From Opitutales bacterium (GTDB taxonomy: Bacteria > Verrucomicrobiota > Verrucomicrobiia > Opitutales > PNEW01), in contig OY829953.1 of NCBI GenBank assembly GCA_963692525.1, forward strand, positions 520,380 to 584,379: a stretch of 64,000 bases of DNA. Direction: 5' to 3'. Below are positions 27,926 through 50,312 of this stretch, piece by piece. The position numbers and the translations under genes are program-made. The first letter of the stretch is position 1. The number at the start of each line of letters is the position of its first letter. The notes beneath the pieces were generated by a model. It saw only the letters and a list, made by a program, of their open reading frames with translations, searched no databases and had not been told where the DNA came from.

Positions 27926-27963
27926 AAAAAAAAGCCACCTCATAAAAATACGAGGTGGCTTTT
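27926..27963 (-). terminator. Rho-independent terminator of pilin copy 1
   Basis: GCCACCTCATA-aaaa-TACGAGGTGGC flanked by A8/T4. Confidence 0.85.
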
Positions 27964-27964
27964 G

Positions 27965-28358
27965 TTAAGATTTAATTCAATTTATTGAGAGAAGGTAACT
28001 ACAGTAGCGTCAGCCTTGCTAACCGATAGTTCGGTAAACCCAGCTGCGATCGGGAATAAGGTTGAATAGGCTTCGCCGGCCACTGCCTTGGGCATCCCCT
28101 TTATATACAGGTTTGTTCCAATGATATCTGACGTCACCGCTTGGGTCATCCCTTCTTCAATGAAGTACTGGTCTGCCGCTGAGGCTACCTGTCTTAAGTT
28201 ATTCGTAATCGTTTTGTCCTGCGAGGTCTGCCGGACTTTATTGAAGGCCGGTATCGCCATCGCTGCTAACAGCCCGATGATCACGACCACAATCATAATT
28301 TCTACAAGGGTAAATCCCTTATTAGTTGTTTTATTAATCATTATATTCTCCATGTGTT
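27965..28358 (+). repeat. 394-bp direct repeat, copy 1 (identical to 49919-50312)
   Basis: By-eye alignment shows no differences; offset 21,954 bp. Confidence 0.93.
27982..28353 (-). CDS. Type IV pilin, copy 1 (probable start ATG 28341 after GGAG)
   Basis: Class III signal peptide KG|FTLVEIMIVVVIIGLLAAMAIP; own promoter and terminator. Confidence 0.92.
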   Translation of the reverse strand: MENIMINKTTNKGFTLVEIMIVVVIIGLLAAMAIPAFNKVRQTSQDKTITNNLRQVASAADQYFIEEGMTQAVTSDIIGTNLYIKGMPKAVAGEAYSTLFPIAAGFTELSVSKADATVVTFSQ

Positions 28359-28401
28359 TTTTAGTTAACTCCCTATTACATTCTTAAAACTAGGGACGAA
28401 T

Positions 28402-28458
28402 AGAATAGAGGACAATAGGGTACTTGCCAAGTCATTTTTTCGACTATCAAAAAATGAC
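28402..28458 (-). promoter_or_regulatory. Putative sigma70-type promoter of pilin copy 1 with adjacent inverted repeat
   Basis: Minus strand TTGGCA-N17-TATTCT; GTCATTTTTT-N8-AAAAAATGAC (28431-28458) abuts the -35. Confidence 0.45.
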
Positions 28459-28554
28459 CCAGATTACAAATGGCCCTACACCTCGGCATAATTACCTTAT
28501 ATCACTGTCACATCCACATTATAACCCATTTAAGGTTAAAGGATAATAGATAAA

Positions 28555-29568
28555 TTATACCGTTTCAACTGGGCCCAAAGCCTTGGCAAAAATCATCTTA
28601 CCACCTGCCGAGGGCAGGATACTTTGAACTTCAATACGAACCGCCTGCCCGATGAGATCATTCCCGTCATTAACAACGACCATAGAGCCGTCATTTAAGA
28701 ATCCGACGGCTTGCCCGGGCTCTTTTCCCTCTTTGACGAGCTCTACATCGAAGATTTCCCCAATATTAAAATCGGGATTGAGAGATTTTGCTAAGGCGTT
28801 AATATTTAGCCAATCTATGGTGTGAAACTCCGCCATTTGAGCGAGATTGAAATCGGTAGTCATGATTTTAGCTTTCATCGACTGGGCGAGAAAAACGAGC
28901 TTTGCATCGACATTCTGTCGTTTACTCACATCGCTCTCATGAATCCGCAGGTCAAGATGCTTCAATTTTCTCAGTTGATTTAGCACTTCCAGCCCTTTAC
29001 GACCTTTTGTTTGGCGCTGAATGTCCGATGAGTCGGCAATACGTTGCAACTCATCGAGGACAAAGCGTGGAATAACAAGCGCATAACCCATAAATTTGCT
29101 CTCGCAGATACCGATAATACGCCCATCGATAAGGATACTGGTATCTAATACAACAAGCGGCACATCCACTCCATGTGGCTCGAATCTAACATAGGGAATG
29201 ACCAGATTAAATTCATCGCGACCACGCAGGGCAATCACCGACCCTAGATACATCAATATAACAAAAAGCGCGAGACGAACTAAGAAAAGTATCTGCGGAT
29301 CTCCATTTTCGAAGAGAGGTGAGTTTGAGATGAATATCGCGAATAACCAGCCGACAAATAGCCCGAAAGTCAGGGCAGTCAAACCGCGAAGAGAAAATCC
29401 TTTTAAGAAAACATCAATGAGAATGACCAAAACACCAATGCTTGCTCCGATGAAAACTGCGAGCGTCCTATACTGATCCCAGTCCGGTATGGAGTAACAA
29501 ACAAGGTAACTTCCAGTAACGCATATGAGGAAAAAGAAAATGCGTATGATGACGATCGTTTTATACAT
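28555..29568 (-). CDS. PIN/TRAM domain membrane protein (YacL-like)
   Basis: 4 TM, LDTSILIDGRI, GKEPGQAVGFLNDGSMVVV. Confidence 0.9.
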   Translation of the reverse strand: MYKTIVIIRIFFFLICVTGSYLVCYSIPDWDQYRTLAVFIGASIGVLVILIDVFLKGFSLRGLTALTFGLFVGWLFAIFISNSPLFENGDPQILFLVRLALFVILMYLGSVIALRGRDEFNLVIPYVRFEPHGVDVPLVVLDTSILIDGRIIGICESKFMGYALVIPRFVLDELQRIADSSDIQRQTKGRKGLEVLNQLRKLKHLDLRIHESDVSKRQNVDAKLVFLAQSMKAKIMTTDFNLAQMAEFHTIDWLNINALAKSLNPDFNIGEIFDVELVKEGKEPGQAVGFLNDGSMVVVNDGNDLIGQAVRIEVQSILPSAGGKMIFAKALGPVETV

Positions 29569-30037
29569 CGATATAATTGTAAACCTGAAGCATTAATAAA
29601 ATGAAATGCGCCATTTTTTGTCAATTGTTGGTTTACGACTAATGTTAGGCGGCGGGAACAGAATTCAATAAAAATTAATATTTTATCATATAAAGAATTA
29701 GTGGTAAAAGCATTCCCAGTAAAATCAGGAAATAAAGGATGCGGAGATGCCAGCGAGTTCGCTCTTGTTCCTTTTCCTTAGGCGACCGTGACATTAATTA
29801 TTGAAGAAAACAATAGGAGAAACTCGGTTCATCTTTAAACAGTTTAACTCTTCAGCTTTTATTTACCTCAATAAATAATAAATGCTGAAATAATGTGTTC
29901 GCTCAATCGTTTACCCGATTAAATAAATAATTAAAATAATATTCAATAATACCTTAAAGTAGGATATTGATTTAAATTACGATAATTAAAGTTAATATCA
30001 AGACAACAAACGATTCAATAAATATTCAACTAAGATT

Positions 30038-30913
30038 GTGTTCGAACAAATAACCATATTAGCTCCCGGACTCATCGGCGCATCGGTCGCCATGGCTTCG
30101 AAGGAAAAATTACTGGCACGTCGTATTACCGTGTGGTCGCGCCGCGCTGAGACCCGCGTGGCGTGTTCTCATCAGCCATGGTGTGACAAGGTATTTGAAC
30201 ACCCTGGGCAAGCAGTTGCGGGTTCTGATTTCATCCTCGTTTGCAGTCCAGTAGAATCGATCTACCCTCTCGTAAGCAAGATCACCGGTGATCTAAAAAA
30301 AGGCGCGATTGTAACTGATGTCGGGAGCACGAAAAGTCTCATTTGCCGTTTCTGCAGTGCGGTCATTTCCTCGAGTAATACATTTATCGGCTCTCATCCC
30401 ATGGCCGGTTCTGAAAAGACAGGGATGGCTCATGCCAGGGCTGACCTATTTGTGCATAAACCCTGCTTTGTCACGCCTCTCGTGGATTCCGACGTTCAAG
30501 CGTTGGATAAAGTCGTAAATTTCTGGAAAGAACTCGAGATGGAAGTCGCGACCGTGTCACCGGAAAAACATGACGAAATCGTAGCTAATATCAGTCATCT
30601 CCCGCATATTCTTGCTTCTATATTGTGCAGTTACCTGGCATCTAAGGATCATACTTGGCGTAGTTTAGCAGGCACTGGATTGCGAGATACGACCCGCATC
30701 GCCTCTGGCGATCCAAATCTCTGGAAATCGATCATCGAGCAAAACCGCGATGAGATAATACGTGCAATAAATGATTTTGAGGAGGAATTGCATGTCATGA
30801 AAACTGCCATCGCTAATGATCAGCATTTCGAAGTCATTAATCTACTTGAGAGGGGTAAAAAATATCGCGACCGGCTTCGTCTCTCCAATGGCAATTCTGA
30901 TAATAAAGAATAA
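30038..30913 (+). CDS. tyrA: Prephenate/arogenate dehydrogenase
   Basis: GLIGAS, TDVGSTK, HPMAGSE, SHLPH, RDTTRIA. Confidence 0.92.
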   Translation: MFEQITILAPGLIGASVAMASKEKLLARRITVWSRRAETRVACSHQPWCDKVFEHPGQAVAGSDFILVCSPVESIYPLVSKITGDLKKGAIVTDVGSTKSLICRFCSAVISSSNTFIGSHPMAGSEKTGMAHARADLFVHKPCFVTPLVDSDVQALDKVVNFWKELEMEVATVSPEKHDEIVANISHLPHILASILCSYLASKDHTWRSLAGTGLRDTTRIASGDPNLWKSIIEQNRDEIIRAINDFEEELHVMKTAIANDQHFEVINLLERGKKYRDRLRLSNGNSDNKE

Positions 30914-31003
30914 AAATTGATCAGCTGAAATCCCACTGATATTTAATTAATAAAATCTTTGTAATAATGCGTCCCACGCTAATTACATATCAGTAACGCA
31001 ATT

Positions 31004-32377
31004 ATGATTGAGTTACCTATAGAACCGTTTACTCGACCTGCGGCGGGATCGGTTACGCTACCCGGTTCTAAGAGTATTACCAACCGCGCTCTTATTTTAG
31101 CTGCTCTCAGCGATGGCGCAGTGACGCTTCGCAATGCGTTATTCAGTGATGACACATTAATCATGCTCACGGCATTACGGAAACTGGGATTTAATATTAC
31201 AGCAGACGAGAATGCAAATGAGATTAATATTGTCGGACTTAACGGTGACATTCCCTGTGGAGAAACAAGACTCCATGTAGGTAATGCAGGTACGGCAGCA
31301 CGATTTCTCACCGCATTAATCTGTCTTAAGGAAAAGGGAAGTTATTATTTAGACAGCGACGATGAGATGAAAATACGGCCGATGGAGGATTTAATCAATG
31401 CCCTCGTATCCCAGGGCGTGGAAGTTGAATTTGAATGTAAAAATGGCTATTTCCCCTTTAAGCTTAAGACTCACCGTTTAAAAGGTGGGCGAATCGAAGT
31501 CGACGCCAGCGCAAGCAGTCAATTCCTCTCTGCACTTCTTATGGTTGCGCCCTTTGCTATTAATGATACGACGATTGAAACCAAAGCTACCAGTGTCAGG
31601 AGACCTTATGTTTATCTAACCGACAGGATGATGAATCACTGGGGACAGAGCATATCAAGCGATAACGATTACCAGGAAACGAGAATAAAGTCGCAGGCAA
31701 ATTACCATTATGGCAAAGGACATTATGATGTCGAACCGGATACGACGGCAGCGAGTTATTTCATTGTGTTGCCCCTGCTCACAGAGGGCGAAGTAAAAAT
31801 TAAAGGATTTAATTGTGATGATAATTCGAAGGGCTCATTGATTTCACAATTATTCCTGCAGGGAGATACACGATTTATTGATGCATTGGAGAACGCAAAT
31901 TTGATATCTCATACGTCGAGTGGTGACATAAGTTTTCAACCTGGCTCTTCAAAAAAGGGAATTGAGCAGGATTTTAATGAATTTTCTGATACCTTCCTTA
32001 CCCTTGCGGCTATTGCACCGCTTCTGGAAGGTAAAACCCGTATTACCGGCATTGGGCATACTCGGCATCAAGAGACAGATCGCATAGCCGCAATGGCAGC
32101 CGAACTGCGTAAGCTAGGCCAGAAAGTAATCGATGACAACGATACATTGGAAATACATCCCAATCGTAATTCCTTAATTGAAAAAGCACGAGAGGGAGTG
32201 ACGATCGAAACCTACAAAGACCATCGCATCGCCATGAGCTTCGCTATTCTCGGATGCGCAGATTTGCTCGGATCCGGTAAATCATGGCTACGCATAAAAG
32301 ATCCTTATTGTTGTGCAAAAACATTTCCTCACTTTTTCGATGTTCTTGAAAAATTACGCATAGACTCTTTGCAATAA
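31004..32377 (+). CDS. aroA: EPSP synthase
   Basis: LPGSKSITNR, GNAGTAARF, SSQFLSALL, ETDRI, DHRIAM. Confidence 0.96.
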   Translation: MIELPIEPFTRPAAGSVTLPGSKSITNRALILAALSDGAVTLRNALFSDDTLIMLTALRKLGFNITADENANEINIVGLNGDIPCGETRLHVGNAGTAARFLTALICLKEKGSYYLDSDDEMKIRPMEDLINALVSQGVEVEFECKNGYFPFKLKTHRLKGGRIEVDASASSQFLSALLMVAPFAINDTTIETKATSVRRPYVYLTDRMMNHWGQSISSDNDYQETRIKSQANYHYGKGHYDVEPDTTAASYFIVLPLLTEGEVKIKGFNCDDNSKGSLISQLFLQGDTRFIDALENANLISHTSSGDISFQPGSSKKGIEQDFNEFSDTFLTLAAIAPLLEGKTRITGIGHTRHQETDRIAAMAAELRKLGQKVIDDNDTLEIHPNRNSLIEKAREGVTIETYKDHRIAMSFAILGCADLLGSGKSWLRIKDPYCCAKTFPHFFDVLEKLRIDSLQ

Positions 32378-32414
32378 GACGCTACGTGGGGATAGATTTT
32401 ACTCCCTATTTATT

Positions 32415-33083
32415 ATGCCCAGAAAAAAATTCACTCTGATCGCGATCGACGGAGGCGCAGCATCCGGAAAATCTTCAACCGCCAGAGCGATAGCCAAACG
32501 TTTTAATTATTTATATGTCGATACAGGGTCGCATTACCGGGCAGTAACCTATCTCATGATCACAAAGGGAATAAATCCGGAAGACCCAGAAGCTGTCGTT
32601 AGATGCCTCAAAGAAATACCATTCGAGACCAAAATTATGGATCAAAGGGCGCTCGTTTACCTCAATTCAAATCATCCTAAAGAAAGTGATCTGCGTAGCC
32701 AGAAAGTGAACGATCAGGTATCCCGCTTCGCCGCCATGCCCGGTGTACGTAAATTTCTTTTAACTTATCAACGCAATCTCGCCTCGGTAGCGCGCAAGCA
32801 AAACTTTGATGGATTGATCATGGAAGGAAGAGATATTGGTTCAATTATTTTTCCCCATGCCGACTATAAGTTTTTCTTGATCGCAGATCCAAATACACGT
32901 ATCGAGCGCCGCGCCCTCGAAGGTCATGAAGATTCCATTGAACAGCGTGACCGATTAGACTCTACACGACATACAGCCCCACTTACGTGTCCACAAGGAG
33001 CGGTAAAGATTGATACATCACGACTGACACTCGATGCGGTCATTGAAAAAATAAGCGCGATTATTGAAGGTCGTAATATATAA
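32415..33083 (+). CDS. cmk: Cytidylate kinase
   Basis: IDGGAASGKSS, DTGSHYR, EGRDIG, RDRLDS. Confidence 0.94.
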   Translation: MPRKKFTLIAIDGGAASGKSSTARAIAKRFNYLYVDTGSHYRAVTYLMITKGINPEDPEAVVRCLKEIPFETKIMDQRALVYLNSNHPKESDLRSQKVNDQVSRFAAMPGVRKFLLTYQRNLASVARKQNFDGLIMEGRDIGSIIFPHADYKFFLIADPNTRIERRALEGHEDSIEQRDRLDSTRHTAPLTCPQGAVKIDTSRLTLDAVIEKISAIIEGRNI

Positions 33084-33087
33084 CTTC

Positions 33088-33717
33088 ATGGAAAAAGAAA
33101 CTTTTGTCTACAAACTGGCCCGGGTTTTATCCTGGATGCTATATCGGGGACTATACAGAGTAAAACTGACTGGACTGGAAAATATCCCTGAAAATGACGC
33201 GTTTATCCTAGCGACGAACCATGCAAGTTTTCTCGATCCCTCACTGGTTGGTTATGCCCTCACCAGACCAATCTACTATTTTGCACGTAAAACACTCTTT
33301 CGGTTTTGGATTGGCGCCTGGTTTCTAGCCCGTTTGAACACAATCCCGGTTGATCGTGATGGTCCATCTGATATTGCCGCTTTTAAGCAGGTCCTCTCTA
33401 TTCTAGGTCAAGGGCATGGCATGTTAATATTTCCTGAAGGAACACGTTCTCGCGATGGAAAATTGCAAGAGGCTAAATCAGGTATAGGTCTCCTGGCTTG
33501 TCGATCTCAAGCGATCGTTGTTCCGACTCGCATTTTCGGTAGTTATGAAGCATTAAGTCGCCATCATAAGTTACCTCGTATTAAGGGACGACTTCACGTC
33601 GTATATGATAAACCGATGTTGCCTTCTGAATACGATCCCCAAGGACCCTCCAAGGTGCGTTATGCCGAAGCTTCCAATCGGATTATGAATCGCATACGTG
33701 ATTTGAGGATTCCGTAA
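33088..33717 (+). CDS. plsC: 1-acyl-sn-glycerol-3-phosphate acyltransferase
   Basis: NHASFLD, FPEGTRS; ATG 33088 just after cmk stop. Confidence 0.88.
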   Translation: MEKETFVYKLARVLSWMLYRGLYRVKLTGLENIPENDAFILATNHASFLDPSLVGYALTRPIYYFARKTLFRFWIGAWFLARLNTIPVDRDGPSDIAAFKQVLSILGQGHGMLIFPEGTRSRDGKLQEAKSGIGLLACRSQAIVVPTRIFGSYEALSRHHKLPRIKGRLHVVYDKPMLPSEYDPQGPSKVRYAEASNRIMNRIRDLRIP

Positions 33718-33854
33718 ATTGAATTTCATTATCCTTTCATGATAGGTTAGGACTTAAAACGCGGTTAGCGGTAAGTAAAACCATCGAGAGCTTGAGCCAA
33801 TGCTCAGGCTTTTCACACTTGACTTTGGTCTTCACTGTCAAATCGTCTAAGCCC

Positions 33855-34454: not shown

Positions 34455-34511
34455 TGCGATGGACCGATGTCTTTTTTTCTTTTACCTACCAAGAATGCCA
34501 GAGTGTGAAAT

Positions 34512-35084: not shown

Positions 35085-35095
35085 GATTCGGATCA

Positions 35096-36640: not shown

Positions 36641-36755
36641 GGCAATTTAATTTCGTGTTCCGTAAATGATCAATACAAGCGACAATCAAACCCTAACCCT
36701 TTACATCTGCGTATAGATGAATAGCGAGTGACCTTAAAAATAAGTTATCTTTGCC

Positions 36756-37703: not shown

Positions 37704-37711
37704 ATAATCAT

Positions 37712-38764: not shown

Positions 38765-38963
38765 GATTAGAGCTTACTAAGATGCCCGCCAATACACAAT
38801 AACAGGAAATAATAATTTCACCAAGTTCAATTACTCTCGGTCAGGAATCTTCCGGATAAGAAGCAATGGTGGTGGTGACTAATTATAAAAACGCTCGAAA
38901 ATACCGGGGAACTTAAATCCCGCCTCAATTTCTCTTATCGAGAAAATTGAAGCTGAAAAAATA

Positions 38964-39560: not shown

Positions 39561-39582
39561 TCATATTAAAGTTTATTCTTAA

Positions 39583-41925
39583 TTAAAATCTCGGCCCAAA
39601 GGTGAAATGGAATTGACTGCCGTCATCATTATATCGGTCGGTGGTGATTGGTATGCCAAAATCCATGCGCATCGGCGCGCCAAGAACTTGAACCCTGATG
39701 CCAAAACCATAGTTGGAATTGTATCTCTTAAAACTAAAATCTCCTTCATCGGGATTGACAAAGCCTAAATCATAAAAAACCGCAAATCTCATACCCTCTG
39801 ATAATTTAAAAGTATATTCGACACTAAAAAACCCGAATGAGTTCCCGCCGATACTATCAATCGAGGTGATGACCCCACTAGGACTCCTTTGAACGTCCTT
39901 GGGACCAACCTGACGAAATTCAAATCCTCGAACATCATCTGGACCACCCAGGAAAAAGCGATCAAAAAAGGGTACCCCCTTGCTACCTACATTAAAAAAG
40001 GATCCCGCACGAGCGTAGAGGCTTAGCGTCTGATCCAAATAATCGTGCGTGGGAAAGAACTGGGATGCTCGCCCTTCTATTTTAAAATAATCAGTATCGC
40101 CACCCAATCCGGCAAATGAAGTTTTTAACTGCACACGATTACCGCGTCTACTGTAGATGATTCTATCTCGAAAATCCCTGATTATATCGATTTCAATCTT
40201 AGAGACGCTTCGTTCACCCTCCTCCGCTTTGATTATAGGCGAGGCGAAAGGGGAAACATCAAAAATATCGACTATTTCATAACTGTATGTAAGCCGTCCA
40301 TCGATATTGTTAAAAAGGCGCTTACGAAGCGATGTTCGGACACCGGATCGCAGTTCATTAAAGCTGACGCTAACGAAATCAGTTTCGAGGCGGAACAAAT
40401 CTACTTCGAATGCTAAGCGTTGATCAAAGAGCCAGGGTTCAACAAAAGTTATCCCATACTCTTCGGAATTTGATCCGATTTCTGCATAAATACGCATCTT
40501 CTGTCCGTCACCTTGAAAAAATGAACGGAAGTTGAATAAGTCAAAATTACCCTGGCTTACCTCTGCGGAGAAAAGCCCTTTTTTCAGTGAACTGAAACCC
40601 GCGCCGAAGGTGAGGTTACCTGTTCGTCCCTCTTTCAGCGATATTTTCATATTCCTGCGACCGGGAATATTTGTTTTTTCAGGAGAAATAAATACGTTAT
40701 CGAAATACTGCGTATTAATAAGTCGAGACTCACTGGATTTCATGCGCACTCGATCAAACACATCACCTGGGGATAAGGAAATTTCCCGAAGGATAACTAC
40801 ACTTTTAGTTTTGGTGTTTCCTTCGATATTGATCGATTCGACAAGGATTTCTTCACTCTCTCTAATATTATAATGTATATCTATATCACCGGTTACCAGA
40901 TTTGGCCTTCGCTCTGCGCGAACGCTGGTATCAAGGTAACCAATTTGTCCAAATGCATCGCGCACTTTATTGCGATCTTCGTCAAGAAGTGAAGGTGAGA
41001 AAACATCACCCGGTTGAAGCTTTAATGGACGCATCAATTCTACGTCGCTATAGAGTGTATTTCCTTCGAAGGTAACATTTCCTACTCTGTATTGGCGCCC
41101 TTCATTAATATCTATCGTAACGCCAATCTTATTGGATGACGGGTAATCTAAAGTTACACTGGCATCTGATATATCAACATCAAGGTATCCTTTTTGTTTA
41201 TATAGAGCTAACAGCTTATCTATATCTTCTTGAAGGATTTCATCCTTAAACCGACCTTTGCCAAAAAATGAGTTTACGATTGAAAAATTTTTGGTGTCTA
41301 AAGTTTTTTTCAATTTTCGGTCACTAATCGCCTTGTTATTGGTAAATTTAACATAGGCTATCTTCAACTTTTGTCCTTCATCGATGCGGAAAACCACATC
41401 GCCATAACCGCTATTTGAGTCTTTGGTAATTTCGTAATCAACGGAAACCTGGGAGAAACCTTTGTCCTGATAGTATTCAAGTATTTTATCACTGTCGTCA
41501 TTAATCCGTCGCTCATCGAGGACACCATTCTCGCGGGAAATAATTTCTTCTTGTAGGCGCGTATTTTTTATTTTGCGATTTCCATCAAAATATATATCAT
41601 GAATTCTATACTTTGCCTGAACAAGAAATATAAGTTTTGATTTCCCATCTGGCATCACTTCGGTTTTGACTTCGATAAAGTCAAGAAATCCGGTGTTGTA
41701 AAGTGATCGTATGGATCGATCGATAAGACTCTGATTATATTCCATCCCCACGCGTATCTGAATGCGCGCACGAATTGCCTCTTCACTGATATTTTTTATA
41801 TCTTTAAACTTAATCTCGATCTGCCCCACAACAGGTTGCACCAAAGCTTCATCTTGCGCAGTTAACAGAGAGGAGTTAACAACACAAAAAAAGAACAGAA
41901 TCCATCTAAATGTGTGTGTGCGCAT
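39583..41925 (-). CDS. bamA: Outer membrane protein assembly factor BamA
   Basis: POTRA repeats (GNTKTKSVVILRE), VRGF motif, terminal Phe. Confidence 0.95.
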   Translation of the reverse strand: MRTHTFRWILFFFCVVNSSLLTAQDEALVQPVVGQIEIKFKDIKNISEEAIRARIQIRVGMEYNQSLIDRSIRSLYNTGFLDFIEVKTEVMPDGKSKLIFLVQAKYRIHDIYFDGNRKIKNTRLQEEIISRENGVLDERRINDDSDKILEYYQDKGFSQVSVDYEITKDSNSGYGDVVFRIDEGQKLKIAYVKFTNNKAISDRKLKKTLDTKNFSIVNSFFGKGRFKDEILQEDIDKLLALYKQKGYLDVDISDASVTLDYPSSNKIGVTIDINEGRQYRVGNVTFEGNTLYSDVELMRPLKLQPGDVFSPSLLDEDRNKVRDAFGQIGYLDTSVRAERRPNLVTGDIDIHYNIRESEEILVESINIEGNTKTKSVVILREISLSPGDVFDRVRMKSSESRLINTQYFDNVFISPEKTNIPGRRNMKISLKEGRTGNLTFGAGFSSLKKGLFSAEVSQGNFDLFNFRSFFQGDGQKMRIYAEIGSNSEEYGITFVEPWLFDQRLAFEVDLFRLETDFVSVSFNELRSGVRTSLRKRLFNNIDGRLTYSYEIVDIFDVSPFASPIIKAEEGERSVSKIEIDIIRDFRDRIIYSRRGNRVQLKTSFAGLGGDTDYFKIEGRASQFFPTHDYLDQTLSLYARAGSFFNVGSKGVPFFDRFFLGGPDDVRGFEFRQVGPKDVQRSPSGVITSIDSIGGNSFGFFSVEYTFKLSEGMRFAVFYDLGFVNPDEGDFSFKRYNSNYGFGIRVQVLGAPMRMDFGIPITTDRYNDDGSQFHFTFGPRF

Positions 41926-41930
41926 ACAGA

Positions 41931-43391
41931 TTAAATGGATTTATCAGAGTAATTCTCGTAACGAGTAAATTCCGGTCTAAACGTTAATGGAACCTTACCG
42001 ACAGGACCGTTGCGTTGTTTAGCTATGATTAAATCAATCACCTCTCCTGATGAAGGCACAGTATTGCCATTTCCTCCCTCCTCTCGTTTATCCCCCCTTT
42101 TCGCAAGGAGAAAGACGACATCAGCATCCTGTTCAATGGATCCCGACTCGCGTAAGTCCGAGAGCCGAGGCTGTCTTTTTTCTCTTTCAGATTCACGGTT
42201 CAGTTGACTTAAGACAAGCACTGGCACTTCCAGTTCCTTTGCCATTGCTTTGATCCCACGAGAAATTTCAGAGATCTGCTGCTCTCTTGCCACCCGGCTA
42301 TCAGTGCCTGAGATGAGCTGCAAATAATCGACAACAATCAGGCCCAGCTTGTGTTTTGCGTGCATGCGCCGTGCTTTGGCGCGCATTTCAAGGATCGTTA
42401 ACTGCCCGGATTCGTCAATCCAGAGTGGAGCTTCTTTCAATGCCTTTGCATCGCGACTCAGACGATTTTGATCCTCCCGGGCTACCATCCCGTCTTTAAC
42501 TCTCTGCATGTTCACCTTTGAATGGCTGCAAAGGAGACGAAACGCGAGCTGGCTCGCGCTCATCTCCAAATTAAAGAACAGCGTCGGCACGGGCTTGCGC
42601 TGCTTATCACTGGGAAAAGTCGCGGCATCGGCAATATTCAGGGCGAGAGATGTTTTTCCCACCGACGGGCGAGCGGCAAGAACAATCATCTCTGACTTAT
42701 GAAAACCAAAAGTCATACGGTCGAGATCGATAAATCCGCTCGAAACTCCACTTAATTCACCCTTACTTTGAAGAAGCGTATTGATCAATTTTACCGCTGA
42801 GTCGATGGAATCCTTTATTGGGATAGCAGATTCCGTGACACGATCTTGACTGATTTCAAAAATCTTCTGTTCTGCTGCCTCGAGAAAATTATCTAACCCA
42901 TCCTGCGAATGATAACAGTCGTCTACGATTTGAGTTGCCGATTTTATAAGCCGTCGTAAAAGACATTTTTCTCGCACGATTTCCATCCAGTACTGTGCGT
43001 GAGCGGTTGTCTCGATGCGGTTGGTGAGGTGAGTAATCGCACTAAACCCACCAATTTCTTCAAGCCTATCTTGAGTTCCGAGGTGCTCTACAAGAATAAT
43101 TTCATCGACGACCGATCCTTTTTCATAGAGATCAAGAAGGGCTTGGAAGATCACCTGATGCGCAGGTTTATAGAAATAATCAGGCGATAATCTAGCTTCA
43201 AGACAGAGCGTAATTGTCTCCTGCCCGCCATCCATGATACATGATGCGATGAGGCCCTCCTCCGCATCGATATTATGTGGGGCAATACGATCAAGCGGAT
43301 CCGCCGCTCCCGCTCTTTCGCGGGCGCTTATTGAGGCGCGATCTTCACCGCTGCGCCCAACTCCATATGTTAGTCCTTTCTTCGAAGGCAT
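41931..43391 (-). CDS. dnaB: Replicative DNA helicase
   Basis: AARPSVGKT, VDYLQL, LSQLNR, DLRESGSIEQDAD, KQRNGP; no intein. Confidence 0.97.
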   Translation of the reverse strand: MPSKKGLTYGVGRSGEDRASISARERAGAADPLDRIAPHNIDAEEGLIASCIMDGGQETITLCLEARLSPDYFYKPAHQVIFQALLDLYEKGSVVDEIILVEHLGTQDRLEEIGGFSAITHLTNRIETTAHAQYWMEIVREKCLLRRLIKSATQIVDDCYHSQDGLDNFLEAAEQKIFEISQDRVTESAIPIKDSIDSAVKLINTLLQSKGELSGVSSGFIDLDRMTFGFHKSEMIVLAARPSVGKTSLALNIADAATFPSDKQRKPVPTLFFNLEMSASQLAFRLLCSHSKVNMQRVKDGMVAREDQNRLSRDAKALKEAPLWIDESGQLTILEMRAKARRMHAKHKLGLIVVDYLQLISGTDSRVAREQQISEISRGIKAMAKELEVPVLVLSQLNRESEREKRQPRLSDLRESGSIEQDADVVFLLAKRGDKREEGGNGNTVPSSGEVIDLIIAKQRNGPVGKVPLTFRPEFTRYENYSDKSI

Positions 43392-43418
43392 GACCCATGG
43401 TCCGGTATCTACCGGAGG

Positions 43419-43892
43419 TTAAGATTCTTTGTCGATTGGATTTTCGGAAACCACTTCGAATTCTAAATCTACTGAGAGTTCGGCGTGCACCTTAATCTTG
43501 GCAATATGTTTACCTAAAGATTTTACTGGGCTGTTAAGTGCAATTTGCTTGCGATCAATTTTCACATCGTGGGCCGTTAGTTGCTCATGCAAATGCTGTG
43601 CCGTTACGGAACCAAATAATTTGCCGCCCGGACCTGTTTTCATGGCGATAGCAATATGTAAATTCTCGATCTTCTTAGCAATTTCCTGAGCTGTTGAAAG
43701 TTCGTTCGTCAATCTATCCTCACGCCTTTTGACCAGTGCTTCAATCTGCTTTCGATTGGCATGATTAACTGGAACGGCCATCATTTTCGGGAAAAGATAA
43801 TTACGTGCGAATCCCGCTTTCACTTGAACATGATCGCCTTCATTACCTAATTTTTCAATAGGTTTGAGAAGTAATATATCAGTTGTAGCCAT
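43419..43892 (-). CDS. rplI: 50S ribosomal protein L9
   Basis: VKAGFARNYLFP, GKLFGSVT. Confidence 0.96.
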   Translation of the reverse strand: MATTDILLLKPIEKLGNEGDHVQVKAGFARNYLFPKMMAVPVNHANRKQIEALVKRREDRLTNELSTAQEIAKKIENLHIAIAMKTGPGGKLFGSVTAQHLHEQLTAHDVKIDRKQIALNSPVKSLGKHIAKIKVHAELSVDLEFEVVSENPIDKES

Positions 43893-43941
43893 TGTTTTAT
43901 TTTATTAAAAATGTTTAAACGATAAAGTTTAAATTAGAAGA

Positions 43942-44397
43942 TTAAAAAGGAACATCATCATCGATATCCGGTTCATCTACACTTCCGGATGATGCGCCGG
44001 CGTTACCCATATCAGATTTTCGTGATGGCGGGGATACATTTTCATAACTTGAATCTCCTCCATCGCTTTTACTACCTACAAATTGAAATCCTTCCAGGAT
44101 AACTTTTAACTTATTGCGCTTTTCTCCCGTTTTGCTTTCCCATGAGTCTAATTGAAGACGCCCCTCCACGAGTATTGGTCGTCCTTTATTCATGTACTTT
44201 GCCAGGACTTCAGCCTGTTTACCAAACGCATCAACATCAACGAAGGTAACATCTTCACGGTTATTCCCATCACTATCACGATAAGTACGATTAACCGCCA
44301 ATCCAATCTGACAAACAGAAGTTCCTTTTGGCGTGACCCGAAGTTCGGGGTCACGCGTCAAATTGCCCATCAGGATTACTTTATTGTAGGATGCCAT
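43942..44397 (-). CDS. ssb: Single-stranded DNA-binding protein
   Basis: NKVILMGNLTRDPE, C-terminal DDDVPF. Confidence 0.97.
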   Translation of the reverse strand: MASYNKVILMGNLTRDPELRVTPKGTSVCQIGLAVNRTYRDSDGNNREDVTFVDVDAFGKQAEVLAKYMNKGRPILVEGRLQLDSWESKTGEKRNKLKVILEGFQFVGSKSDGGDSSYENVSPPSRKSDMGNAGASSGSVDEPDIDDDVPF

Positions 44398-44415
44398 TTC
44401 GCTTTGAAGGTATTA

Positions 44416-44718
44416 TTATACGGATTGTATAATGATGCGTTTAATCGTCTTTTCAAGGCGCAAGTTTTCCTGCAATTGACGAGGGGCATCAGGTGGACCG
44501 TTAAAAGCGATGTTTAAATAAAAATCTGCGAGATGTTTTTTATCTGTGACACGTATAAAATCAAAACGCCCGAGATTATTCACATCACCCACTTCACCTC
44601 CCACCTCTTCAATTGCTTTTTTCAATTGTTCAATAAGGGCATCAATTGTCTCTTCAACGCCACGCGTATCGAGAATGATGGAGGCATTATAATTACGACT
44701 AGTTAAAGTTTGATTCAT
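44416..44718 (-). CDS. rpsF: 30S ribosomal protein S6
   Basis: Size, S6-like pattern and position directly upstream of ssb. Confidence 0.85.
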   Translation of the reverse strand: MNQTLTSRNYNASIILDTRGVEETIDALIEQLKKAIEEVGGEVGDVNNLGRFDFIRVTDKKHLADFYLNIAFNGPPDAPRQLQENLRLEKTIKRIIIQSV

Positions 44719-45301
44719 CAGTAGTTTTATTTCGTTTGTTAATTTGATTCATGGCAAGGTTTGGTCCTCTGTCAATAAGGAGCTGAAGATTGGTCAAATA
44801 ATCGCTCATTTTGTTATTCACAACCTCCTGCTCTTGGGCATTAAATTTACTAAGAACGAAAACTTTCAGTTCGATTTCAGGTGGCACTTTTGGACCAATG
44901 CCAATACGAAAACGGGAAAACCCATCACCCAGGTGTTGGATGACACTATCAATGCCATTATGGCCGCCGGCGCTTCCGTTTGTTGTGATTTTCATTTCCC
45001 CCAAATTAATTTGTACTTCATCAGCTACAATGATCAAATTCTCAACTGCTATTTTATAATAGTCGCAAAGTGGATTTAGAGAACGACCGCTTTCATTCAT
45101 GTAGGTGAGTGGTTTAACCAACAATAAGGATTTTTTATCCAGGGTCAGACGAGCGACTTCTGCCTCAAATCTGTTCTCAGATTTCCATTTTCCGCCATTC
45201 TGTTTATTCAAACTATCAACAATTTCAAATCCTATATTATGTCGCGTGTGACGATATTCATCTCCAGGGTTTCCCAATCCCGCAATAACCAATATGGACA
45301 T
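44699..45301 (-). CDS. pth: Peptidyl-tRNA hydrolase
   Basis: GLGNPG..Y..TRHNIGF, KPLTYMN.SG, GGHNG. Confidence 0.96.
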   Translation of the reverse strand: MSILVIAGLGNPGDEYRHTRHNIGFEIVDSLNKQNGGKWKSENRFEAEVARLTLDKKSLLLVKPLTYMNESGRSLNPLCDYYKIAVENLIIVADEVQINLGEMKITTNGSAGGHNGIDSVIQHLGDGFSRFRIGIGPKVPPEIELKVFVLSKFNAQEQEVVNNKMSDYLTNLQLLIDRGPNLAMNQINKRNKTTDESNFN

Positions 45302-45366
45302 GACTAAAATTAAAAATTTTAATAAGGGGTAAAGTCTAAAACGACTTTATCTCTAAGCTGAGCTTT

Positions 45367-46065
45367 TTAAGAATCGGAATCAGATTTACCCGTCTCACCC
45401 TTATCCTCACTTTTTGATGTGGGTGCTTCGCCTTCTGACGGTTCTTTACCCTCTTCCAATTCCTCCTCACCAACTTCCTCTTCATCTACTACAACCGGTT
45501 CTTCTTGAACCGCTGGTGCTACGCAAGCAACGACAAGCAATTCCGGGTCGGCAATAAATTCGACCCCCGCGATTTCTGTAAGATCTTTAATGTGGATTGA
45601 ATCGCCAGTGTGAAGCTCAGAAACTTCAATATCAACTGTTGAAGGTAAGTCACCTGGTAAACAGCGTATCTCCAGATCATGTGCGAAAATTTCCATGAGG
45701 GCACCTTCGTTCTTCACCCCGATAGCTTCACCGATAATATGAACAGCTACATTCGTATGCATCCTTTCAGTGCTTGATACTTCATGAAAGTCAATATGGA
45801 GGAATTGATCCGTACGCGCATCGCGTTGTACTTCCTTTATAATCGTTAACGCCGGTTTATCCCCCTCAACGTCAACTTGAATTAATGTAGTAACACCAGA
45901 TATTGCTTTCCAGAGAACGCGGAAGTCGGTTTGCTCAATGATTAGTGGCTGACTTCCTTTTTTACCATAAATGACCGCGGGTATTTTTCCTGACGCGCGT
46001 AAGCGGCGATTTGACCCTCGGCCGGTCTCTTCTCTGGGAATAACTTTTAATTCTAGTTGTTTCAT
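45367..46065 (-). CDS. rplY: 50S ribosomal protein L25/Ctc
   Basis: RRLRASGKIPAVIYG, HIDF, acidic tail. Confidence 0.95.
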   Translation of the reverse strand: MKQLELKVIPREETGRGSNRRLRASGKIPAVIYGKKGSQPLIIEQTDFRVLWKAISGVTTLIQVDVEGDKPALTIIKEVQRDARTDQFLHIDFHEVSSTERMHTNVAVHIIGEAIGVKNEGALMEIFAHDLEIRCLPGDLPSTVDIEVSELHTGDSIHIKDLTEIAGVEFIADPELLVVACVAPAVQEEPVVVDEEEVGEEELEEGKEPSEGEAPTSKSEDKGETGKSDSDS

Positions 46066-46292
46066 AATATTATCATCAACGGGATTAGCTTACTCCCATC
46101 AGAAAAAGCTTAAAATTCATAAACTTATGATTCTAAAAAGCAATCAAAAGTTTAAATTTCTTTCTTCCCCGCATTATTACTTAGGAACTGTAATAATTAG
46201 GCCGGTTTTGCGTCAAAGTGACTATAAAATCTTAGACAAGTAATACCTTGCGATTGTTTTCTTTTGCCAGAACTCCGGTTATGCTCCCCTCC

Positions 46293-47891
46293 TCAATTTT
46301 CTTCCAGGTTAGTAGACTTATTACCGGGGACGAGATAAGTATTCTCTCTATCGCTTTGAAGGACTTGATCTAACTTCTCCCGCAACTGATGAAACATGAA
46401 TGGCTTGAATAGCCGCACGGCCGGAAACTTCAATTTTCTGCTATAGGATTCCGTTTTACCGAGCGAATTTATAATAATTAATGGCAAATGATAGTCGTTG
46501 ACCAAATCAATAATTTTATCCGCTATTCCATCAACTTGTGACATCGACCACTGGGCATCGATAAAAACAACCCCAAAGTCATTAATATCATACTCTAACA
46601 GGCTCAGGGCTTTATCCACGGTATGCGCAAATACTGTCGGAACTTCTAATCGTTTTAATTTCGCGGCAAGACCACTAAAAGTCATGGGGTTTTCGATAAC
46701 GAGTGCATGTTTTTCTTTATTCCAATCTATTAATGGAACGGGTGCCAATGAGAAAGAATTTACCTTTACGGTAAAAGTGAAGGTAGAACCTTTTCCTAAT
46801 TCACTTTTAACTGTAAGATCGCCCCCCATCATTTTCGCCAGGTGTTTTGTAATCGTAAGACCAAGACCCGTACCTCCAAAATTGCGCGCGGTTGAATGAC
46901 TACCTTGATTAAAAGCGTCAAATATGTAATCCAGTTTATCTTCAGATATCCCTAACCCTGTATCGAGAATAGAAAATTTGAGTTCCGCTGAACCGTCAGA
47001 AAACTGTTCTGCTAATGAAACTGAAACGACAATTTCACCACTCATCGTGAATTTAACGGCGTTGCTTAGAAGATTGATCAAAATTTGCCGCAATCGATTG
47101 GGATCGGATTCAATGATCAGAGGAAGATTTTCATCCTCGTCACAAATGAACTCCAACTGTTTGGCATATATTTTGGAAGAGAACAGAGCCAAAGTCTCTT
47201 GCAGCCATTGATGAAGATTAAACGATACGGAATCGATTTCGAGTTTGTTCGCTTCGATCTTCGAAAGATCCAGAATATCATTGAGCAAATTTAGAAGATT
47301 TCTCCCTGAATTCTTAATCGTAATCAAATATTCCAACTGCTCTTCATCAAGGGAAGTTTCATGAAGTAATTCGCACATCCCCATAAGCGCATTCATCGGT
47401 GTGCGAATTTCATGACTCATATTCGCGAGAAACAATGATTTCACTCGATTAGCAGACTCTGCTCTTTTACAGGCCGCATCCAGCCTTTCTTCCAATCGCT
47501 TATTTGATGCTACACTTTGAGTTATATTTTCGACTACGCCCAATACTTGAATGATCTCATTATCAGATTTGAACTGATAAGCGGTAAACGTAATTTTTAA
47601 AATCAGATGACGCCCGGCGCGGTCTTGCATGCGAGCGGCACAACTGAAACGTTCGTTGGGTTTCAATTTATCAAGCTCTAACAAGCACGAAGGTGAATTA
47701 TTATCGTTTTTTTGCTGATTTAAGGCGTGAAAAAAATCAATTCCTTTTGTCTGAATCTCCTGAGAGGAGTAGCCCGATAAATTTTCCAGCTCACCATTGG
47801 TATAAACAATTCTCTTCTCAATTAGATCGTAAATAAAGATCGGGAATGGGAATAATTCTGCAGAAATATTTGGAGAATTTGTGTTACTCAC
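46293..47891 (-). CDS. PAS-domain hybrid sensor histidine kinase with atypical receiver domain
   Basis: FLANMSHEIRTPMN, NLLSNAVKFT, DTGLGI, GGTGLGL; C-terminal IDAQ...FKP. Confidence 0.9.
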   Translation of the reverse strand: MSNTNSPNISAELFPFPIFIYDLIEKRIVYTNGELENLSGYSSQEIQTKGIDFFHALNQQKNDNNSPSCLLELDKLKPNERFSCAARMQDRAGRHLILKITFTAYQFKSDNEIIQVLGVVENITQSVASNKRLEERLDAACKRAESANRVKSLFLANMSHEIRTPMNALMGMCELLHETSLDEEQLEYLITIKNSGRNLLNLLNDILDLSKIEANKLEIDSVSFNLHQWLQETLALFSSKIYAKQLEFICDEDENLPLIIESDPNRLRQILINLLSNAVKFTMSGEIVVSVSLAEQFSDGSAELKFSILDTGLGISEDKLDYIFDAFNQGSHSTARNFGGTGLGLTITKHLAKMMGGDLTVKSELGKGSTFTFTVKVNSFSLAPVPLIDWNKEKHALVIENPMTFSGLAAKLKRLEVPTVFAHTVDKALSLLEYDINDFGVVFIDAQWSMSQVDGIADKIIDLVNDYHLPLIIINSLGKTESYSRKLKFPAVRLFKPFMFHQLREKLDQVLQSDRENTYLVPGNKSTNLEEN

Positions 47892-48105
47892 AGAACAGAT
47901 TCAGGCAATTTATAATTAAAGTATTAAAAAACCTAATTAAATATTAAATTATAGGGTATGAAAAAAAGAATCTTTACCCTCCGACTCCTTGTCAAATAAA
48001 TCTATCTTTGAACACTAAATTTTTCTAATTAATTTGATATGCCATGTGATTTTTTTATTATTAGATATCGATAATTTCAGCATCTTGAGACGTTGCTAAT
48101 CAGAC

Positions 48106-48180
48106 GTCCCCATAGTTCAATGGATAGAACCGCGGTTTCCTAAACCGTTAATCCGAGTTCGACTCTCGGTGGGGGCACCA
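48106..48180 (+). tRNA. tRNA-Arg (anticodon CCT)
   Basis: Acceptor GTCCCCA/TGGGGGC, D arm, anticodon arm GCGGT-TTCCTAA-ACCGT, T arm CCGAG-TTCGACT-CTCGG, encoded CCA. Confidence 0.96.
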
Positions 48181-48797
48181 GCCTTCGCCCGTTGGGCTAC
48201 GGCTGGCAGGCCAGCTATCAGCTGTTGAGTACGTAAAAAAACATTAAAAGGTCTATTGCTTGGCGAAGGCTGCGCGCTATAGCTCGAAGAGCGACGGCGG
48301 GCATTTCGTGCAAATGCTAGGGAAATGGTTTTCTCTCTATATTTGTAAATATAAAACTTCGCCCGTTGGGCTACGGCTGGCAGGCCAGCTATCAAATTTC
48401 GTACCCCCTCCCTCTAACCTATGATCGCTCAATTTCCTGGCGAAGGCTGCGCGCTATAGCTCGAAGAGCGACGGCGGGCATTTCGTGCAAATACGAGGGA
48501 AATGGTTTTCTCTCTTTATTCATAAATATAAAACTTCGCCCGTTGGGCTACGGCTGGCAGGCCAGCTATCAAATTTCGTACCCCCTCCCTCTAACCTATG
48601 ATCGCTCAATTTCCTGGCGAAGGCTGCGCGCTATAGCTCGAAGAGCGACGGCGGGCATTTCGTGCAAATACGAGGGAAATGGTTTTCTCTCTTTATTTGT
48701 AAATATAAAACTTCGCTCCCGCAGTAGCGGGACTGGCAGGACCAGCTATCAATTTTCGTACCCCCTCCCTCTAACCTGTGATCGCTCAATTTCCCGG
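48178..48797. repeat. About 3.5-unit tandem array (174/177/177 bp) of inverted REP-like pairs (BIME-like)
   Basis: CTTCGC motif at 48183, 48357, 48534, 48711; opposite-orientation palindromes at 48269, 48446, 48623. Confidence 0.92.
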
Positions 48798-48809
48798 TGT
48801 TAAATATCC

Positions 48810-49780
48810 TTACTCTCCCAGCCAATTGGGGACTTTGGCCACCCACCCATTCAGCTCTACAAATTGTTTTTCCAGTACTCCAAGCTTTTGGTAAACATGA
48901 GAGGGAAATCTTCGCTCCAAGAAGTATGTAAAATCCGTGAGTAATGTCGGTTCATTTCCCATCAATTGACTGAGGTAGGAAAGCTCAGACACGATTAAAG
49001 TAGCAAGATAATGGTTATCGTTGAGTTGTAATATATCTATTCTATCTGAATCTATATTTATTTCTTCCAGTTTAAGTATCTTAACCCCGGAACGCTCAGC
49101 GATATCCTGTAAAATACCATAACAGCGAACCAGTCTGTAATAAATATCTACTGGTACTTTACCACGCTCGAAGTGGGGTGTGGCAGGTAGTGATTCTGCG
49201 TCGGGAAAAAACAATAATAATCTGGATGCGTGTTCAATCGCTGTTGTCACTTCCAGGTAGACATCAGTCGGTGTTACTTGCCTATCAAGAAGAATATTTA
49301 ATTGACGTTGAGCATTGATTATCGAGCGATAAACATCGGATGGGGTCATTCTGGGATCTCTAGGTAACTCCTGAATCTGCTCAATTATATTATATTTAAG
49401 TTTCACAATGCCTATTTGATTCAAGGCAGCATTCACTAAATCAAAAACATGAGTGGGCATTATTTTCCCTTCATGCCTGTCTGGTGGTTTTGCCAGTTCT
49501 TGCGTATGTTCGTAGCAAAACCGATTAGCCAGTTCAAAAAGTGCAATCGCCTGGGCGTATACTTCGCGGGGCACCGCACCGGCTACTTTGATTCCAGATC
49601 GTAACTTTTTGGTTTCCCCATCTCATAGCTCAATAACTCGAGTTCTCCGGGTAACAGGGCTATCCGGGTAAAAACATCCGCGGGTTCAATCTCCCTGGCT
49701 TCAACTTGGTAGGGTATTAAAGTAAAAATAAATGAGATCAATATCATCCCCACATTAGCCATGGCAGATTTGATGATCAT
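48810..49780 (-). pseudogene. Secreted helical-repeat hypothetical protein split by a 1-nt frameshift near 49590
   Basis: 65-aa ORF with signal peptide and EPADVF motif continues in the -1 frame as IKVAGAVPREVY into a 254-aa ORF carrying repeated P-x-D/E-V-Y/F motifs. Confidence 0.65.
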
Positions 49781-49881
49781 ATTAATACATTTACTACTAA
49801 TATCATCAGCTTATCAAGCACGATGAATTCAACGCTATTCGCTAATAATATTATGTAAGTTGGGACTTTATCTTTAGACAT

Positions 49882-49917
49882 AAAAAAGCCGCCTCATATT
49901 ACTATGAGGCGGCTTTT
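49882..49917 (-). terminator. Rho-independent terminator of pilin copy 2
   Basis: GCCGCCTCATA-ttac-TATGAGGCGGC flanked by A6/T4. Confidence 0.88.
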
Positions 49918-49918
49918 A

Positions 49919-50312
49919 TTAAGATTTAATTCAATTTATTGAGAGAAGGTAACTACAGTAGCGTCAGCCTTGCTAACCGATAGTTCGGTAAACCCAGCTG
50001 CGATCGGGAATAAGGTTGAATAGGCTTCGCCGGCCACTGCCTTGGGCATCCCCTTTATATACAGGTTTGTTCCAATGATATCTGACGTCACCGCTTGGGT
50101 CATCCCTTCTTCAATGAAGTACTGGTCTGCCGCTGAGGCTACCTGTCTTAAGTTATTCGTAATCGTTTTGTCCTGCGAGGTCTGCCGGACTTTATTGAAG
50201 GCCGGTATCGCCATCGCTGCTAACAGCCCGATGATCACGACCACAATCATAATTTCTACAAGGGTAAATCCCTTATTAGTTGTTTTATTAATCATTATAT
50301 TCTCCATGTGTT
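49919..50312 (+). repeat. 394-bp direct repeat, copy 2
   Basis: Identical to 27965-28358 by eye. Confidence 0.93.
49936..50307 (-). CDS. Type IV pilin, copy 2 (identical to 27982-28353)
   Basis: Same translation and nucleotide sequence as copy 1. Confidence 0.92.
   Translation of the reverse strand: MENIMINKTTNKGFTLVEIMIVVVIIGLLAAMAIPAFNKVRQTSQDKTITNNLRQVASAADQYFIEEGMTQAVTSDIIGTNLYIKGMPKAVAGEAYSTLFPIAAGFTELSVSKADATVVTFSQ

Follow-up and report, generated by a model that had tools for sequence, protein, structure and literature searches.

Several systems are known in which duplicated bacterial genes exchange sequence. The flagellin genes flaA and flaB of Campylobacter use different sigma factors, and their concerted evolution was reportedly described by Meinersmann and Hiett in 2000. 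For the tufA and tufB genes of Salmonella, passages of PMC5485169 give conversion rates, for repair-proficient strains, of 10^-8 to 10^-5 per cell and generation, describe conversion tracts as processive and blocked by non-homology, and report that 59 nt from the end of the gene conversion occurs 100 to 1000 times less often than in its middle. Here we describe a comparable arrangement in a 64,000-nt stretch of the genome of an Opitutales bacterium (contig OY829953.1, positions 520,380 to 584,379; hereafter the window), which carries two identical copies of a gene for a predicted type IV pilin-like protein, at ~28 kb (locus A) and ~50 kb (locus B). Comparison with related genomes indicates that the two coding blocks have very probably been kept alike by gene conversion, and that the terminators adjoining them have not. 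The genome (G000) is a single 4.49-Mb contig; it was compared with a sister species of the same genus (G001), a further lineage (the G002 type), a neighboring genus (G003), and metagenome populations.

An exact two-copy repeat containing a pilin gene

The sequences at window positions 27965-28358 and 49919-50312 match at every base over 394 bp, the longest perfect run between the loci in G000. Both blocks lie on the minus strand, in direct orientation and with a spacing of 21,954 bp, and they constitute family D2 in the dispersed-repeat listing of the window. Each comprises 5 nt upstream of the first ATG, the ribosome-binding site (RBS), the whole pilin coding sequence (CDS), and the 17 nt that follow the stop codon. 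The minus-strand open reading frame (ORF) occupies 27982-28353 at locus A and 49936-50307 at locus B and encodes 123 aa counted from the first ATG (28353 at locus A). The second ATG (28341 and 50295, respectively) is likely to be the true start, giving a 119-aa precursor that begins MINKTTNKG/FTLVE, because a GGAG precedes it (28348-28351 at locus A) and neither the paralogs nor G003 conserve the first ATG. The CDS would then span 27985-28341 at locus A (stop codon 27982-27984) and, identically, 49939-50295 at locus B (stop codon 49936-49938).

The reality of the repeat was checked using Logan contigs, rather than raw reads, of the DNA runs X1 and X4 and the RNA runs X15 and X16. X1 may be the source sample of G000, and X4 comes from another study and carries another organism code; runs X7-X12 hold 78% of the words, and the contig evidence stems from the four runs named. 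In X1 the block forms a separate 394-bp contig with a depth of 34.1, compared with 17.8 and 15.1 for its flanks, and in X4 it again forms a separate 394-bp contig with a depth of 14.6, compared with 8.57 and 7.83. A further contig in the DNA runs joins the block at 28358 and branches into the sequence upstream of locus B, and no variant letters are listed within the block in the contigs of X1 and X4. Because a 394-bp unitig with roughly double the depth of its flanks branches into the flank of locus B, the block is a real exact two-copy repeat and not an assembly artifact. There was no sign that the 22-kb segment between the copies is amplified, as judged from crude contig depths inside the repeats (15.1 in X1 and 7.83 in X4) and outside them (17.8 and 18.9 in X1; 8.57 and 5.47 in X4).

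Directly 3′ of each block is an intrinsic terminator consisting of a 15-bp hairpin followed by a U run. The terminator of locus A (27930-27963, minus strand) has the stem GCCACCUC...GAGGUGGC and a predicted stability of -23.4 kcal/mol (z -8.9); its homolog at locus B (49884-49917, minus strand) has the stem GCCGCCUC...GAGGCGGC and a stability of -25.2 kcal/mol (z -8.9). For each, none of 200 shuffled controls was as stable. The two terminators (27934-27964 versus 49888-49918) differ at seven of 31 positions, among them a paired stem change from A-U at locus A to G-C at locus B, at CDS-relative positions 398 and 417. On the 5′ side, local alignment over 40-120 nt detected no homology between the flanks of the two loci above that of shuffled sequences (p 0.6-0.9), and an eroded homology that had been suspected from short inverted repeats in both leaders was rejected on the same grounds. 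These inverted repeats, which enclose AT-rich loops, lie ~20-45 nt upstream of the RBS on the minus strand (28376-28400 and 50330-50356). Their arms, read by eye, are TCCCTA...TAGGGA at locus A and ATCCTT...AAGGAT at locus B, and a similar one is present in G003.

The original prediction for this window, made from its letters alone, had described the 394-bp identity extending from the RBS to 17 nt downstream of the CDS in direct orientation, homologous terminators with seven differences that include a compensatory stem pair, and unrelated upstream sequences. The exact match, the terminator alignment, and the shuffled controls agree with this description in each respect, and the collapse of two similar genes during assembly, which it had named as a possibility to exclude, is contradicted by the exact two-copy repeat in short-read contigs of two studies.

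Coding sequences group by species and terminators by locus

The sister species G001 contains two pilin copies 21,786 bp apart, in flanks orthologous to those of G000 (97.3% identity over 12.4 kb at locus A; 93.3% and 95.9% at locus B, over ~12 kb). Orthologous flanks are likewise present in G002 and in metagenome populations, three of which hold both loci: m315339 (contigs L128 for A and L129 for B), M (a single 21.6-kb contig with the 3′ part of B at one end and the 5′ part of A at the other), and m310344, which is of the G002 type (contigs L130 for A and L132 for B; flank identity 83% at A and 80% at B).

In a four-way alignment of the A and B copies of G000 and G001, 352 of the 372 CDS columns are invariant, 16 group the copies by species, none groups them by locus, and the remaining four are singletons, all in copy A of G001. 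The first 17 nt of the 3′ untranslated region (UTR) comprise 12 invariant columns, one that groups by species, none by locus, and four singletons. From +18 to +50, the 33 columns covering the terminator include 25 that are invariant, none that groups by species, seven that group by locus, and one gap. Thus, the signal switches from species to locus between +17 and +18 after the stop codon, and each terminator type is unchanged between G000 and G001. The identity of A and B in G000 includes synonymous sites and the 3′ UTR and has a sharp boundary. Of the fixed differences between G000 and G001, five to six are synonymous and common to both copies (sd 5.5; synonymous divergence, dS, 0.068). Had the copies evolved independently since the split, 16-20 differences between A and B would be expected; none is observed in G000 and four of 372 in G001.

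The same pattern recurs in the metagenome populations. Copies A and B differ at 11/372 positions in m315339, at 2/263 and 3/153 in the two partial overlaps available from M, and at 68/372 in m310344, compared with 16-33/372 between orthologs of different populations. The longest perfect run between A and B falls from 394 nt in G000 to 224 nt in G001, 107 nt in m315339, and 18 nt in the G002 type. Between A and B, dS is 0 in G000 and 0.073 in m315339, and it is 0.22-0.30 between those populations. When sites in quartets of sequences were counted as supporting grouping by species, by locus, or otherwise, the CDS gave 16:0:0, 24:0:0, 19:0:0, 40:0:0, 37:0:1, and 41:3:0, and quartets with the half-gene M contigs gave 12-23:0:0. 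Terminator quartets gave 0:7:0, 0:2:0, and 0:3:0 (three times each) and 1:3:0 (once). Overall, 12-41 CDS sites support grouping by population versus 0-3 by locus, whereas 2-7 terminator sites support grouping by locus versus 0-1 by population.

A maximum-likelihood tree of the CDS joins A with B within populations (support 100/99 for m315339, 99/95 for G000 with m66376, and 99/96 for the G002 type). Trees in which the B copies form a clade are rejected by the approximately unbiased (AU) test (delta lnL 90.6, p 6.5e-37), also when three B copies are used (p 7.5e-7). In contrast to the CDS, the A-type stem is kept at locus A, and the B-type stem at locus B, in G001, G002, m315339, M, and m310344. 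Because this stem pair is locus-specific (A-U at A, G-C at B) in all five of the five populations that have both loci, the terminators record an old duplication that the CDS does not. The check proposed earlier for an old duplication with a homogenized coding block was whether paralogs of one genome resemble each other more than they resemble their orthologs. The comparison shows that they do, with the CDS grouping by species at 16:0 and the terminators by locus at 7:0, and with G001, the three metagenome populations, and the AU test in accord.

Probable gene conversion between positional paralogs

The most convincing explanation for these observations, and one that we regard as very probable, is homogenizing gene conversion between two old positional pilin paralogs, resulting in concerted evolution. 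Each locus would constitute a compact unit in which RBS and CDS are combined with a terminator of their own, with both units encoding the same small protein, and the duplication would be older than the divergence of the genus into at least five populations or species. The coding blocks would repeatedly overwrite each other through non-reciprocal homologous recombination between the direct repeats, such that a new substitution would either spread to both copies or be lost from both. Conversion tracts would not extend beyond the homologous block. Homology just stops at the 5′ side, and at the 3′ side the last ~50 nt, which contain the terminator, would represent an edge zone rarely reached by conversion that has consequently diverged and now marks the locus. 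The mechanism would presumably be of the RecA type and use an intrachromosomal or sister-chromatid template; an indirect hint that homologous recombination is required comes from the diverged G002-type pair, in which perfect runs reach no more than 18 nt.

The segment between the copies encodes DnaB, BamA (Omp85/POTRA), Skp, LpxD, PRPP synthetase, L9, SSB, S6, Pth, L25, Cmk, and EPSP synthase, with a core of BamA, DnaB, L9, SSB, S6, Pth, and L25 genes identified by Pfam at 39583-46065 on the minus strand. The essentiality of such genes is established in model bacteria. As the genes for DnaB, BamA, SSB, Pth, and ribosomal proteins lie between the repeats, loss of the segment by crossover should be lethal. 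Reciprocal crossover would remove dnaB, bamA, ssb, pth, and the ribosomal protein genes, and only conversion products should survive. The Pfam matches agree with the original prediction, which had placed essential genes (dnaB, bamA, ribosomal proteins) between the copies.

In the G002 type, the 68 differences amount to 18% of sites, with a dS of 0.69. Nonetheless, A and B of this lineage still pair first in the tree, and they differ from the other clade at 76-89 sites, which suggests an early conversion that later stopped. Once conversion had lapsed, divergence to perfect runs of 18 nt or less would have placed the pair beyond homologous recombination, a form of escape. Recombination in E. coli needs perfect segments of roughly 20-30 nt, and if this requirement holds here, the escape would be irreversible. 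The earlier proposal that the coding block is kept homogenized thus applies to G000, G001, m315339, and M but not to the G002 type.

In G003, a pilin gene is found at locus A only. Its locus-B position holds a 303-aa ORF on the other strand, and tblastn detected no pilin at that position. The available sequences are compatible either with a gain of locus B in the genus or with its loss in G003.

Two metagenome contigs from different samples (L126, 1-1224; L127, 1-2869) connect the sequence upstream of locus A, through the pilin gene, to the sequence downstream of locus B. In addition, the 21.6-kb metagenome contig (ends L134 and L186) begins and ends inside the pilin gene, with ends that overlap (CDS 223-263). 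Such junctions could reflect cycles in the assembly graph through the collapsed repeat, or else the 22-kb segment may be tandemly duplicated or excised as a circle. The opposite combination, B-upstream with A-downstream, was not seen among the metagenome contigs.

Several points weigh against recurrent gene conversion. No conversion event has been observed directly, and the data strictly require one homogenizing event per lineage after divergence, not continuous conversion. All read-level evidence comes from contigs and not from raw reads. The pairing of A and B contigs into one genome is an assumption for m315339 and m310344, M being the only metagenome population in which the loci are physically linked. 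The G001 pair is weakly supported as a clade (62/74), and at CDS positions 234 and 252 its copy A equals the m315339 alleles, which are possibly imports and not new mutations. Homogenization is evidently not obligatory, given the divergence of the G002-type copies. Finally, the 5′ side has no eroded zone, identity there extending up to unrelated sequence, and a simple edge-effect account fails at that end.

Alternative explanations for the identity of the two copies

The strongest competing possibility, although an improbable one, is that both loci were overwritten not by each other but by the same allele acquired from related strains, through transformation or another form of homologous recombination with foreign DNA. 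In its favor, some differences within a population match alleles of another, as in copy A of G001 at the two positions that equal m315339, and the many type IV pilus or type II secretion ATPase genes of G000 make DNA uptake conceivable. This account, however, demands that the same allele enter two loci independently in at least four lineages. Imported DNA would also be expected to bring donor flanks, yet the flanks are cleanly orthologous, and the switch in signal between +17 and +18 sits at the edge of the homology between A and B, as predicted if each locus serves as the template for the other. The paralogs P3 and P4 of G000 (see below) were considered as donors and rejected: two of the four G001 copy-A singletons match P3 by eye, which is no more than expected by chance.

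A recent duplication, in which one locus was newly made from the other and is too young to have diverged, would readily yield zero differences over 394 bp in G000. It is refuted by the conservation of the two-locus arrangement: both loci are found with their own terminator types in G001, G002, and three metagenome populations, in orthologous flanks that are up to ~20% diverged, and the terminators differ at 7/31 positions, each being unchanged between G000 and G001. We thus assign this explanation a negligible probability.

An equally negligible probability attaches to the idea that assembly collapse or consensus polishing made two merely similar genes identical. Multi-mapped reads can homogenize repeats during polishing, and G000 is probably a metagenome-derived long-read assembly. 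The short-read contigs of two studies nevertheless contain the block as a variant-free unitig at about double depth that branches into flanks of both kinds, and the independent assembly G001 displays the same pattern with four differences. The G000 assembly also keeps insertion sequence (IS) copies separate at 99.2-99.9% identity, from which it follows that repeats were not generally blurred during assembly.

Strong purifying selection acting alone, without recombination, is about as implausible, for although the first 170 nt of the CDS are invariant in G000 and G001 and the N-terminal half has a nonsynonymous divergence (dN) of 0, A and B of G000 agree at synonymous sites and in the 3′ UTR, 16 sites (~5 of them synonymous) differ between the species in both copies at once, and the same gene pair reaches a dS of 0.69 in the G002 type. 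The synonymous substitutions shared by both copies refute it. In the C-terminal half, G000 and G001 differ by 10.5 nonsynonymous and 3.5 synonymous changes (omega ~0.96). Positive selection was considered and rejected, since an omega of 0.96 is found only for this half of this pair, all other pairs having values of 0.1-0.4, and the counts are small.

If gene conversion does homogenize the two loci, as the evidence favors, its benefit might lie in gene dosage or in two regulatory inputs for one filament subunit. A bolder idea, which we consider rather unlikely, is that the loci form a synchronized pair, with conversion selected such that the cell never builds mixed filaments from a fast-evolving subunit, whose exposed C-terminal half changes rapidly between close species. 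If so, a favored new allele would be copied to the second locus, producing a coordinated surface change, for example under pressure from phages or grazers; the pair would receive two regulatory inputs, from its own start at locus A and possibly from symporter read-through at locus B; and the loss of synchrony in the G002 type would represent a split into two functionally distinct pilins.

The encoded protein and its paralogs

The precursor, MINKTTNKG/FTLVEIMIVVVIIGLLAAMAIPAF, has a short basic leader ending in glycine, followed by the motif F-x-x-x-E and some 20 residues of hydrophobic helix; the mature protein would have 110 residues. Matches to PF07963 N_methyl (33.5 bits; cut-off 21.2) and TIGR02532 (32.1 bits; cut-off 16.3) both pass their thresholds, and on this basis the product is classified as a predicted type IV pilin-like protein with a prepilin N-terminal cleavage/methylation domain. 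Two more specific assignments were rejected. The protein lacks any cysteine, and thus the D-region disulfide of a classical type IVa major pilin (PilA/PilE), and it scores 50.4 bits against the NF041775 PilA model, for which the cut-off is 400; as a GspG pseudopilin it scores 44.8 bits with TIGR01710 (cut-off 88.85), across the N-terminal 57 positions only. The cut-offs of the other curated models, including myxococcal PilA and ComGC, were not reached. Sequence matches in the PDB are limited to the N-terminal helix (Geobacter PilA-N, then PilA and PilE proteins). An AlphaFold2 model built from 31 sequences (mean predicted local distance difference test score, pLDDT, 81.3) predicts a helix at residues 12-63 and strands at 104-108 and 114-118 that form a small beta-sheet. 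With this model Foldseek found no PDB match at E 0.001 or better; its best seven rows are type IV pilins, at weak scores (E 0.23 or worse; template-modeling score, TM, 0.47 or less). Relatives of 112-123 aa that share an invariant GFTLVEIMIVVVIIGLLAAMAIPAFNK segment occur in many records from Opitutales and other Verrucomicrobiota.

G000 encodes four paralogs, the twins, P3 (75% aa identity), and P4 (68%), all of them full-length and with their own RBS. The only prepilin peptidase gene detected, a Peptidase_A24 match that also contains A24_N_bact, lies two genes downstream of P3. At this site (G000:C1:2514874-2517526; L205, 2874-5526) P3, a 350-aa ORF of no known family, and the A24 gene look like one operon. 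Ten matches to the T2SSE family of ATPases exceed the cut-off in G000.

Transcription of the pilin gene

RNA contigs from two metatranscriptomes of different studies cover 27994-28373 (X15) and 27966-28375 (X16). Both extend 15-17 nt into the leader specific to locus A (28359-28375, minus strand), with no loose end, and in X16 nothing else is covered in the 2.4 kb compared. It follows that transcription of the pilin gene occurs in nature, from locus A at least. The two contigs begin within the 3′ arm of the inverted repeat in the locus-A leader; a transcription start near 28373-28375 is possible, but since these are contigs and not reads they provide only a weak hint of its position. No contig with B-specific ends was found in X15 or X16, a result that is uninformative on locus B, as contigs drop minor forms. 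The description of the loci as two apparently expressible genes is consequently upheld for locus A only.

Neighboring genes and other repeats in the window

The partner genes differ between the loci, as had been noted for the downstream side. Locus A sits between a PIN-domain protein gene upstream (28555-29568, minus strand), whose orthologs adjoin the locus-A pilin in G001 and G003, and a 620-aa ORF downstream (26061-27923, minus strand) that matched no known family. Locus B sits between a sodium:solute symporter gene upstream (50496-52148, minus strand), with orthologs in G001, G002, and G003, and 65-aa and 254-aa ORFs downstream (48810-49780, minus strand), for which again no known family was matched. 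No terminator-like site was found between the symporter gene and pilin B. The G001 symporter ortholog upstream of locus B (G001:C2:127374-129023, L115) contains one in-frame TAA, reflecting either a pseudogene or a sequencing error, which becomes relevant if locus B receives read-through from the symporter gene.

Downstream of locus B, three tandem 177-nt units (48252-48782) separate the 254-aa ORF from a histidine kinase gene and have 100%, 95%, and 68% identity to the reference copy; their copy number may vary, as the matching G001 region aligns in several registers. Elsewhere in the window, positions 56448-59833 contain dispersed repeat families of 44-84 nt (D3, D4, D6, and D9) with GC-rich cores such as CGCTGGGGACAGC and GTCCCCAGCGCGCTTCTT, and internal direct repeats of 56-74 nt (D5 and D7) at 6458-6762 probably represent a repetitive coding region. 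G000 as a whole holds at least 10 copies of a ~1.4-kb element with 99.2-100% identity (for example C1:1099490-1100903, 1855466-1856882, and 4277012-4278393) and several copies of a ~1.3-kb element, both probably insertion sequences.

Comparison with known systems

The twin pilin genes do not introduce a new mechanism, but they offer a clear case, from nature, of concerted evolution in a marine verrucomicrobium that is uncultured. The populations form a graded series, with 0, 4, ~5, and 11 differences in homogenized pairs, 68 in the escaped pair, and a single-copy outgroup, which should be useful for studying the homogenization of short (<400 bp) dispersed repeats, the ends of conversion tracts, and divergence where conversion fails. 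Two practical warnings follow: pilin trees in this group do not mirror the history of the loci, and short-read assemblies break or mis-join at the twin gene, as in the A-upstream/B-downstream contigs. Our literature search, which left most subscription journals outside its reach, found no report of homogenized twin pilin genes or of Opitutales pilins.

The original prediction had drawn a parallel with Neisseria pilE/pilS. The likeness is that a type IV pilin gene is involved and that pilin sequences of the same chromosome undergo RecA-type gene conversion. The parallel fits poorly, however, because in Neisseria silent partial copies donate variant segments and diversify one expression locus, whereas here two complete copies are made alike. 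Antigenic variation of the pilE/pilS type was accordingly rejected: there are no truncated silent copies, no G-quadruplex (G4) motif within ~550 nt on either side of either block, and no variant letters in X1 or X4. The two pilE copies of N. gonorrhoeae MS11 are near-identical duplicates. The strain table of PMC3662692, through its delta-pilE1/2 and delta-pilE2 derivatives, attests two expression loci for the major pilin, pilE1 and pilE2, in that strain. The resemblance is loose, since the doubling in MS11 is a strain-level feature of a pathogen with a pilS repertoire, whereas the present arrangement is conserved across species.

The twin pilins instead belong with tufA/tufB and flaA/flaB. Like them, flaA and flaB are duplicate genes for a major filament subunit, with 95% identity according to passages of PMC5126078; those genes are arranged in tandem and encode flagellins, whereas the pilin genes are separated by 22 kb of housekeeping genes. 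The tuf genes of Salmonella enterica and E. coli are likewise two full-length, separate copies kept near-identical by non-reciprocal recombination, in that case of a gene for a very abundant protein, with conversion limited to the homologous block and inefficient near its ends, as described in parts of PMC5485169. The same passages place the 1185-nt tuf genes 762 kb apart in inverted orientation, compared with 394 nt, 22 kb, and direct orientation here. A crossover would thus invert the tuf segment but would delete essential genes in the present case. The edge effect described in those passages for tuf fits the unconverted zone at the 3′ edge of the pilin blocks, where the terminator diverges and the interior stays identical.

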